From positions 6,525-70,524 of the forward strand of contig SUXY01000001.1 of assembly GCA_015060705.1 (NCBI GenBank): DNA of 64,000 nucleotides. The letters are read 5' to 3'. Positions 61,842-63,300 of the stretch are shown here, piece after piece. The notes beneath the pieces are model-generated. The model did no database searches, had not been told where the DNA came from, and was given only the letters and a program-made list of their open reading frames with translations. The DNA comes from Bacteroides sp. (GTDB lineage Bacteria; Bacteroidota; Bacteroidia; Bacteroidales; Bacteroidaceae). Both the position numbers and the translations under genes were made by a program. Every line of letters begins with the position of its first letter. Position 1 is the stretch's first letter.

Positions 61842-61877
61842 AAGAAAAGGAGTGGGGTGAATCATCACCCCACTCCT
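61842..61877 (-). terminator. Intrinsic terminator whose 5' arm is the last codons of queL
   Basis: Minus strand AGGAGTGGGGTGA-TGAT-TCACCCCACTCCT-TTTCTTTT; 13-bp perfect stem. Confidence 0.8.
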
Positions 61878-62554
61878 AAATCCGTATTCTCCATCAATAC
61901 CTCTATCCGCGGATCATCCTTGATCATCGGATAAACCTCTTTCGCAAACCAGGAGGCTAATTCCTTGTCTTGCTTTATTGAAGTATGGTTATCACAAAAC
62001 ACATTCACACTGAAGTATTCAAAATGTGCCTTGGCCAGCTCAATGTCTTTCAGGATGTGCTCCTTGGTTTCTCCTTGCGTACAACACAATAGACAAATGC
62101 CTTGGAAATGTTGAGCGATGTCTTGAACGGAAACCGATGATGGGATTCCTTTCTTCCATGCCTCCCGAAGAGCCGTATCAAAGGTTTCTACCCCACAACG
62201 GAACTTCACCTTGGCAGGCGCAAATTGTTCGGCAAAGGAAGCCAGTTTTTTACGAAACATGTAGTGCGCCTCGAACCAAAGGGTATGAATCTTTTTCTCC
62301 TTTACCACTTCTTTGATGAAGGCTATGGTTTCTTCATCAAGTTCCATGGCCGAACCGGAATTAATCACATCAAGCACTCCATATTGCCCTGTTACTTGAC
62401 GCAAAACGGGCTCGTTCACTTCGAAGGGACGCTCGCTCACATCTTCGTGGTAATCGCAAAACGTACACTTCCGCCAACGACACCCCATCCCTTGCAACAA
62501 GACAAATTCCCGGGGCATCTTGGTCGATATCAACGCGTATCTATCCATGATCAT
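61865..62554 (-). CDS. queL: Queuine lyase QueL (compact radical SAM enzyme)
   Basis: 229 aa; RY...REFVLL, CRWRKCTFCDY (CX4CX2C), VTGQYGVLDVINSGS, FEAHY, GVETFD and C-terminal NTDLGVG match clostridial QueL as recalled. ATGA-coupled to a queuosine-precursor transporter gene. Confidence 0.8.
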   Translation of the reverse strand: MIMDRYALISTKMPREFVLLQGMGCRWRKCTFCDYHEDVSERPFEVNEPVLRQVTGQYGVLDVINSGSAMELDEETIAFIKEVVKEKKIHTLWFEAHYMFRKKLASFAEQFAPAKVKFRCGVETFDTALREAWKKGIPSSVSVQDIAQHFQGICLLCCTQGETKEHILKDIELAKAHFEYFSVNVFCDNHTSIKQDKELASWFAKEVYPMIKDDPRIEVLMENTDLGVG

Positions 62555-63189
62555 TCCAATTTAAGCACGTAGCGACGCAAAGCATGAATCACGGCATATG
62601 CCATCGGGGTACCAAAAACCGACTCGATGAGCAACTTCACACCATATTGGAAGGCGATCATCATCAAGAGGTCGTGAGTGGAAACAATACCCAAGAAAGC
62701 GATGAGCACGAAAGGTAAGGAATCGAACAGATAAGCCACCGCCGAACTACCGATTGTACGGACCCAAAGGTGTTTACCCTTCGTCTTTATCTTGATTTTT
62801 TCCATGAGCCATGCATTGGAAAGTTCACCCAAAAGGAAACCCACCAACGAGCCGATCACGATTCGAGGAACATAGGAGAACAGATGATTATAGGCCGTCT
62901 CCGTTTCCGCCAGATAATCGGGCGAAGGGAGCCATACCCCTATCTGTGTACAAATCACCATGAGGATATTACAGAAGAAGGTCATCCAAATCACTTTTCG
63001 AGCGGTCTTGAAGCCCCACAACTCCGTGAGGACATCGCCCAGCATATAAGCAAAAGGGAAGGTGATGGTACCTGCGTCGAAATAGAAGAGACCGAAAATA
63101 CTAATGACCTTGACGGCCATAATGTTGGATACCAAATAGAGTGTTACGAAGAGGGCCGTGATGGTCATTAACGCCGTGTGGCTACTCAT
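62551..63189 (-). CDS. yhhQ: Queuosine precursor transporter (YhhQ/QPTR, VUT family)
   Basis: VSNIMAVK, DAGTITFPFAYMLGDVLTELWG, PRIVIGSL, LWVRTIGSS..DS..F..IAF. Probable start is ATG 63189; the ORF-track start at 63228 would include the riboswitch. Confidence 0.9.
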   Translation of the reverse strand: MSSHTALMTITALFVTLYLVSNIMAVKVISIFGLFYFDAGTITFPFAYMLGDVLTELWGFKTARKVIWMTFFCNILMVICTQIGVWLPSPDYLAETETAYNHLFSYVPRIVIGSLVGFLLGELSNAWLMEKIKIKTKGKHLWVRTIGSSAVAYLFDSLPFVLIAFLGIVSTHDLLMMIAFQYGVKLLIESVFGTPMAYAVIHALRRYVLKLE

Positions 63190-63224
63190 TCGGTTTTTTT
63201 TAAAAGGGTGTTCCGATACCTTTT
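63190..63224 (-). ncRNA. Class I preQ1 riboswitch aptamer (predicted)
   Basis: AAAAGG-UAUCGGAACAC-CCUUUU-AAAAAAAA-CCGA-(AUG): 6-bp P1, loop beginning with U and ending in AC, A-rich L3, 4-bp P2 pseudoknot UCGG/CCGA. Lies directly upstream of yhhQ-queL. Confidence 0.8.
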
Positions 63225-63231
63225 TCATTTT

Positions 63232-63253
63232 CTGATTACTGATTACTGATTAC
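63232..63253. repeat. Heptamer tandem repeat (CTGATTA)x3 in the yhhQ leader
   Basis: CTGATTACTGATTACTGATTAC. Confidence 0.85.
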
Positions 63254-63258
63254 GTGGG

Positions 63259-63266
63259 CAAAGGTA
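63259..63266 (-). promoter_or_regulatory. -7 promoter element (TACCTTTG) for yhhQ-queL
   Basis: Exact TAnnTTTG just past the GH92 terminator; places the aptamer inside a ~65-nt 5' UTR. Confidence 0.65.
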
Positions 63267-63267
63267 T

Positions 63268-63300
63268 AAAAAAAATAGGTATGGAGAATATCCATACCTA
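63268..63300 (-). terminator. Intrinsic terminator of the GH92 gene
   Basis: TAGGTATGGA-TATTC-TCCATACCTA followed by T8 on the minus strand. Confidence 0.85.

Follow-up and report, generated by a model that had tools for sequence, protein, structure and literature searches.

The first codons of the yhhQ gene in the window, the 64,000-nt stretch of Bacteroides sp. DNA analysed here, carry what is very probably a compact preQ1-type riboswitch that is missed by the standard database model. Under our main reading, to which we give a probability of about 0.6, a class-I-type preQ1 aptamer occupies yhhQ codons 3-13, and the ligand-locked knot would block initiation and so shut off the importer together with a QueL-like enzyme. 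The element is a real RNA under selection, and sequence comparison makes a clear and well-supported case for an aptamer located inside an ORF.

The element and its place in the yhhQ operon

On the minus strand, positions 63224-63187 read AAAAGG, UAUCGGAACAC, CCUUUU, eight A residues, CCGA and AUG, letter for letter as in the initial annotation. They can be laid out as a hairpin whose 6-bp stem is AAAAGG/CCUUUU and whose 11-nt loop contains UCGG, complementary to the downstream CCGA (Table 1). The class I preQ1 register that had been assigned to these letters holds as well, with a U at the first loop position, a G at the sixth whose partner is the C that follows the A-tract, and a C at the loop end. 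We collected 80 orthologous loci (81 with the window), all from Bacteroidales MAGs of animal guts and with 73-98% protein identity. The motif was found in 80/80, with the consensus AAGG-UAUCGGAAAAC-CCUU-UCAAAAA-CCGA. P1 has 4 bp in most members, and the A-rich L3 tail between P1 and P2 has 4-8 A in every member, being longer where P1 is longer; the A-tract of the window's subclade exceeds that of the other members. When a covariance model built from the orthologues (R1) was run on the window's own 2.95-Mb genome, a single match of 44 bits was obtained, with the runner-up at 18 bits. Because of this gap and the presence of the motif in every orthologue, the element lies far beyond chance.

Table 1. 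Features of the yhhQ locus in the window, with examples of the paralogous aptamer (positions of the latter refer to their own loci).
Feature	Position	Strand	Remark
Small radical-SAM-family gene	61865..62554	-	229 aa; start overlaps yhhQ stop (ATGA)
Terminator-like hairpin	61848..61877	-	closes the two-gene operon
yhhQ / QPTR queuosine-precursor transporter ORF	62551..63228	-	225 codons from ATG1
Second in-frame ATG (ATG2, Met-14)	63187..63189	-	start assumed in the initial annotation
P2 3' strand CCGA (pseudoknot)	63190..63193	-	
A8 tract (L3 tail)	63194..63201	-	
P1 3' strand	63202..63207	-	core CCUU = 63207-63204
11-nt loop	63208..63218	-	U63218 and A63217 = L1
L2 = AACAC	63212-63208	-	C63208 = predicted ligand-pairing C
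P2 5' strand UCGG	63216-63213	-	within the 11-nt loop
P1 5' strand	63219..63224	-	core AAGG = 63222-63219; extended to 6 bp in the window's subclade
Conserved yhhQ start (ATG1)	63226..63228	-	3 nt 5' of core P1
Tandem 7-nt repeats (3 perfect copies)	63232..63253		short leader between -7 box and ATG1
-7 promoter box match TAccTTTG	63259..63266	-	about 30 nt before ATG1
Hairpin flanked by T/A runs	63276..63300		terminator of upstream GH92 gene (stop codon 63325-63323)
Paralogous aptamer, L150	2121-2150	-	
Paralogous aptamer, L152	2108-2137	-	
Paralogous aptamer, L160	1442-1471	+	

The initial annotation had the aptamer end directly on the start codon, with the A8 tract and CCGA at positions -12 to -1. 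In the ORF that begins with the in-frame ATG at 63228-63226, the AUG at 63189 is only Met-14, and it is the upstream codon that is conserved in the clade, so that the numbering does not apply to the clade's conserved start, which lies 5' of the aptamer. A start codon is found 5' of P1 in 81/81 loci, always in frame and never then interrupted by a stop. It is ATG everywhere except in L079 (GTG), and its spacing to AAGG is 3 nt, or 6 nt in L044 and in locus L140 of the family sample. ATG2 is kept in 11/81 loci only, namely the window and its closest relatives, and in the other 70 its position is occupied by ACA, ATC, GTG, ACT, GAT, AAA and other codons. The linker that follows CCGA measures 0, 3, 6, 9, 12 or 33 nt or, in loci whose core has one base less, 4 or 16 nt, and in 62/81 loci no ATG, GTG or TTG occurs between the aptamer and a Thr-Ala/Pro-Leu segment, which must be translated because its codons vary synonymously. 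Since ATG1 is universal and in frame and ATG2 is present in 11/81 loci only, we conclude from the alignment that the element corresponds to yhhQ codons 3-13 and would hence be translated. The bases upstream of ATG1 are A at -11 to -13 in 57-62 of 80 loci and at -3 in 48/80, G is nearly absent, and no Shine-Dalgarno (SD) sequence was found upstream of ATG1 in the 80 orthologous loci. This A-enrichment agrees with the signature described for the initiation region of Bacteroidetes, which combines such A-rich positions with low structure from -20 to +20 (PMC6847099).

The product of yhhQ belongs to the YhhQ/QPTR family (PF02592 at 1.5e-47; TIGR00697). The small gene that overlaps its stop codon lies downstream on the same strand in 65/80 loci. 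Its 229-aa product gave sub-threshold radical-SAM and RaSEA matches only, the nearest Atlas clusters being radical-SAM proteins of about 230 aa, mostly from Bacillota; these matches are compatible with a QueL-like enzyme, though they do not prove it. The genome, which is 88% complete, encodes a TGT (C85:16910-17986, 524 bits), and neither a full QueC match nor QueF was found in it, so the organism looks like a salvager of preQ1 or queuine that apparently lacks de novo preQ1 synthesis. Upstream of yhhQ, the sequence TAccTTTG fits what we take to be the Bacteroidetes -7 consensus, and we infer a transcription start near 63255-63250. A TAnnTTTG box occurs within 80 nt upstream of ATG1 in 44/80 loci, mostly 19-35 nt away. 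Other short tandem repeats were seen at the place equivalent to that of the window's 7-nt repeats in the leaders of L017, L027, L035, L038 and L039. Metatranscriptome contigs from one study (4 runs) span the leader and both neighbouring genes; they show neither a transcript start nor a strand, and may stem from carried-over DNA. The statement of the initial annotation that neither an SD nor a terminator is present was borne out, in that a purine-rich SD and a conserved downstream terminator are both absent. A hairpin at 63104-63120 (minus strand, yhhQ codons for MAVKVI) was considered as a terminator platform and rejected, as its pairing and T-run are not conserved; it is probably there by chance.

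Two features next to the aptamer may be mentioned here. Codon 2 (63225-63223 in the window) belongs to the NAY type, encoding Asn, Asp, His or Tyr, in 70/81 loci (L009-L088 and the window), against 11% NAY elsewhere in the ORFs; in the window itself it is AAA. The NAY families are the four read by queuosine-tRNAs, and the choice of codon 2 may add a further regulatory layer through them, or the bias may reflect a mere nucleotide constraint (A at +5, and a pyrimidine at +6 that avoids lengthening P1). Right after the aptamer, L054, L058, L059 and L069 share a lineage-specific in-frame insertion of 33 nt; an inverted repeat in it, GGCACA...UGCGUGCC, may form an additional hairpin beside the pseudoknot.

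Selection on the RNA and the pseudoknot fold

We made a codon alignment of the 81 yhhQ ORFs and compared third-position entropy inside and outside the motif. Outside, the entropy of the third position averages 1.42 bits over the 109 conserved degenerate codons and in no case drops below 0.1, synonymous sites there being saturated. Inside, synonymous sites on predicted stem and ligand-pocket bases show no change, and the third positions of AAG, TCG, GAA, AAC, CCT, AAA and AAC are invariant (entropy 0). The motif codons that do vary (GTN, TTC/TTT/TTA/TCA and CGA/CGG/CGC) map to L1 (second position), to the beginning of the tail and to P2 (fourth pair), sites that the preQ1-I model leaves free. 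Non-conservative residue changes (Phe, Ser, Leu) occur where the RNA model permits them, and where the A-tract is one base shorter, Lys-Asn-Arg becomes Lys-Thr-Glu/Ala/Gly while CCGA is retained. Frozen synonymous sites together with tolerated peptide changes indicate that a conserved peptide is not the explanation.

Both helices are nearly invariant within the in-ORF clade, apart from a fourth P2 pair that is mismatched in about 8 loci, and the clade therefore holds little information on pairing. Other Bacteroidales YhhQ proteins are 35-43% identical to that of the window, and R1 proved too narrow for the leaders of these paralogous genes (L148-L172). By reading the leader sequences, we found that 19 of the 28 sampled, across Bacteroidales families, carry a compact preQ1-I-like aptamer of the form CGUG-U[G/A]CUUG...AC-CACG-U[U/A]AAAAA-CAAG, which is non-coding and lies 2-8 nt before the ATG. 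Rfam gave no match on these 5'-UTR aptamers. The two families share an identical 4-11-4-7-4 layout and differ in their stems, those of the UTR family being CGUG/CACG and CUUG/CAAG. Further stem variants are CGAG/CUCG in L149, UUGG/UCAA in L157, L163 and L171, and GGGAG/CUCCC with CUAG/CUAG and the loop UACUAGAAAAC in L158.

The two families were combined in an ungapped alignment (A2) of 23 distinct sequences, 16 in-ORF and 7 UTR. Six of the eight pairs are changed on both sides in a compensatory manner, and 98.4% of cells are paired, compared with 74% in shuffles. The covariation score was 0.65, against 0.22 in shuffles; of the six offsets used as slid controls, five gave about 0 and one (+2) gave 0.30. 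This covariation, which comes from few independent events and mainly from one deep split between the two families, points to an H-type pseudoknot with two helices. P1/P2 covariation in yhhQ leaders, named in the initial annotation as a check, is accordingly compensatory across the two families, while the in-ORF clade taken alone is nearly invariant. The pocket bases of preQ1-I (the U at loop position 1, the last C of the loop, the closing G-C of P1 and the P2 G-C after the tail) are present and invariant, the two A2 pairs that never vary being the G-C pairs that flank the pocket. The full set of invariant bases in A2 (G4, U5, G10, A14, C15, C16, A22-26 and C27) coincides with what we take to be the preQ1 contacts in the aptamer structures solved for T. 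tengcongensis and B. subtilis.

Nested folding of the 107-nt leader gave z = +1.9, a structure as weak as or weaker than that of shuffles, and the 42-nt aptamer alone reached -3 kcal/mol. We set aside thermodynamic support from nested folds, which is no better than that of shuffles and is uninformative for a ligand-dependent pseudoknot. Such a weak nested fold implies that the default state is open, which suits an SD-less initiation region.

Proposed control of initiation and its alternatives

SD-independent translational control, as proposed in the initial annotation, is a sensible reading because a preQ1-like knot stands at a yhhQ operon in an SD-less lineage and no terminator is present; the geometry given for it has to change. 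Translation from ATG1 at 63228 would put the aptamer at +5/+7 to +39 of the mRNA. In the ligand-free state this stretch would be essentially unstructured and the SD-less Bacteroidales ribosome could load, and binding of preQ1 (the predicted ligand) or of a close 7-deazaguanine would lock the pseudoknot. Once the start codon occupies the P site, the knot would begin at +7 (+5 in the window) and abut the A-site codon. Toeprinting places the limit to which the 30S subunit holds mRNA single-stranded at about +15. A ligand-locked knot in this downstream position and the 30S initiation complex would be mutually exclusive, so that initiation would be blocked at ATG1 and also at the adjacent ATG2 where one is present. 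The importer and the co-transcribed QueL-like enzyme would then be shut off, giving feedback on preQ1 salvage. Since TGT is present and QueC and QueF were not found, these two proteins would both supply preQ1 and be repressed by it.

Probably the aptamer obstructs the ribosome from its downstream side. As to the more specific proposal that the same 33 nt encode transporter residues 3-13 and form a preQ1-sensing pseudoknot 3' of the start, which acts on the downstream half of the SD-less ribosome-binding site, we would put the chances at about even. Repression of initiation by a preQ1-I pseudoknot through steric block and without SD masking has been described, with the knot upstream of the start (PMC10018353). 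Programmed frameshifting on A AAA AAC was also considered and discarded, as this heptamer occurs only in the window's subclade and no structure lies at the right downstream distance.

The position of the start codon bears directly on this proposal. If translation in this strain began at ATG2 (63189), the aptamer would be a 5'-UTR element, the ligand would lock the pre-AUG A-tract and CCGA, and ATG1 would be unused or minor. This is how the initial annotation saw the A-tract, as a platform before the AUG, and that notion fits the paralogous family, in which the same aptamer lies 2-8 nt before the start codon; the direct succession of CCGA and ATG2 in the window and its closest relatives (11/81) and the longer A-tract of this subclade also speak for it. 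However, ATG2 is missing in 70/81 loci and ATG1 is universal, in frame and followed by no stop, the A-rich signature at -11 to -13 and the A at -3 belong to ATG1, and the -7 box is only about 30 nt before ATG1. We consider ATG2 unlikely as the main start, and the pre-AUG platform, at odds with the geometry of the clade, may apply to it as a secondary start of the window's subclade. It is also quite unlikely, in our view, that a real aptamer acts here mainly through Rho-dependent termination, mRNA decay or early elongation instead of a block of initiation. Untranslated leaders are known targets of Rho and RNases (general knowledge; PMC13104608), and the two genes are translationally coupled through their ATGA overlap, which would be in keeping with such an output. 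Yet no conserved terminator was found, the sole terminator-like candidate within the ORF lacks conservation, the sequence before the pseudoknot has no slippery site, and effects of this kind would most simply be a consequence of blocked initiation, not a substitute for it.

That the element senses no ligand at all, and owes its conservation to the N-terminal peptide, to a codon or structure need of SD-less initiation, or to a protein or sRNA site, appears very improbable. The peptide varies (F/S/L; NR to TE) at positions left free by the RNA model, and synonymous sites do not change where that model requires a given base. In a non-coding paralogous family both helices are preserved by compensatory changes, and the bases that never vary match the preQ1-I pocket. 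Against these stand the missing Rfam match, a nested fold no better than shuffles, and a tight, patchy clade whose shared ancestry inflates conservation.

Relation to known preQ1 riboswitches and distribution

The element resembles preQ1-I riboswitches (RF00522; T. tengcongensis, B. subtilis queC, Carnobacterium antarcticum queT) in being an H-type pseudoknot of about 30-34 nt, with a P1 closed by a G-C beside the pocket, a loop that begins with U and ends with the ligand-pairing C, and an A-rich tail followed by a G-C pair of P2. In the same register it can be aligned with the C. antarcticum sequence given in PMC10018353. Riboswitches of this class are found at queuosine-precursor genes, including COG1738/yhhQ, and the same association with queuosine synthesis or salvage is seen here through YhhQ/QPTR and the small radical-SAM gene. 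It differs from the solved aptamers in its shorter P1 (4 bp in most members) and in the sequences of P2 and L1, and it has no SD to hide. Unlike known preQ1-I aptamers, which usually occupy a 5'-UTR and have an SD overlap or a terminator as platform, it lies 3' of the start codon, in translated codons 3-13. The paralogous Bacteroidales 5'-UTR aptamer shares its layout, pocket bases, transporter family and order, and both are missed by Rfam; that aptamer differs in being non-coding, in its stems, and in having its A-tract about 9 to 15 nt before the start. As in the steric roadblock of C. antarcticum (PMC10018353), the locked pseudoknot is here proposed to occupy the ribosome footprint without SD-antiSD masking. 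The C. antarcticum knot lies upstream, at -13 to about -24, in an SD-using host, whereas the one described here would lie downstream, at +7 to +39.

The Rfam class I model, named as a check in the initial annotation, returned nothing at the site. RF00522 had no match in the whole window at the gathering score (39 bits), none at E<=10 in 231 nt and 66 nt around the site, and likewise none at the site in a search of the window's own genome; the gathering threshold is an operational criterion and not a structural one. By its hallmarks the element would be structurally a preQ1-I riboswitch, although it falls short of the Rfam score and stands outside the usual 5'-UTR/SD context.

A survey of Bacteroidaceae lists two riboswitch regulogs only, TPP and cobalamin (PMC3766115), and according to surveys preQ1 switches occur mainly in Firmicutes (PMC3766115, PMC2258182). 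In the literature that we searched, no preQ1 riboswitch was tied to Bacteroidales and no aptamer was placed inside an ORF, though an earlier description may exist. Non-coding leaders are taken for granted in the search for and modelling of riboswitches, as is SD masking where a switch acts on translation. If our reading is true, gut and rumen Bacteroidales use preQ1-type switches that the standard model misses, and an aptamer can move across the start codon into an ORF and yet stay under selection. The element would then also offer a test system of about 40 nt for the control of SD-less ribosomes by mRNA structure 3' of the start codon, and yhhQ with the radical-SAM gene would form a preQ1-repressed salvage cassette in organisms apparently without de novo preQ1 synthesis.

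Strong R1 matches were all at yhhQ starts. In the family sample, 16/151 genomes were positive, the window's own included. The order sample, with about one genome per family, gave one credible match among the other 150 genomes (G236, 54.9 bits), and no credible match was found across 150 phylum-wide genomes. A match of 29 bits in G206 of the order sample and matches of 24-29 bits in L097-L100, L127 and L142 were rejected as false, none of them being at yhhQ. The cassette of aptamer, yhhQ and radical-SAM gene (window 61865-63266) has a patchy distribution, and all 6 further genomes sampled from the window's genus lack it. Such patchiness, combined with proteins that are at least 73% identical, suggests that the cassette has spread laterally among animal-gut Bacteroidales.
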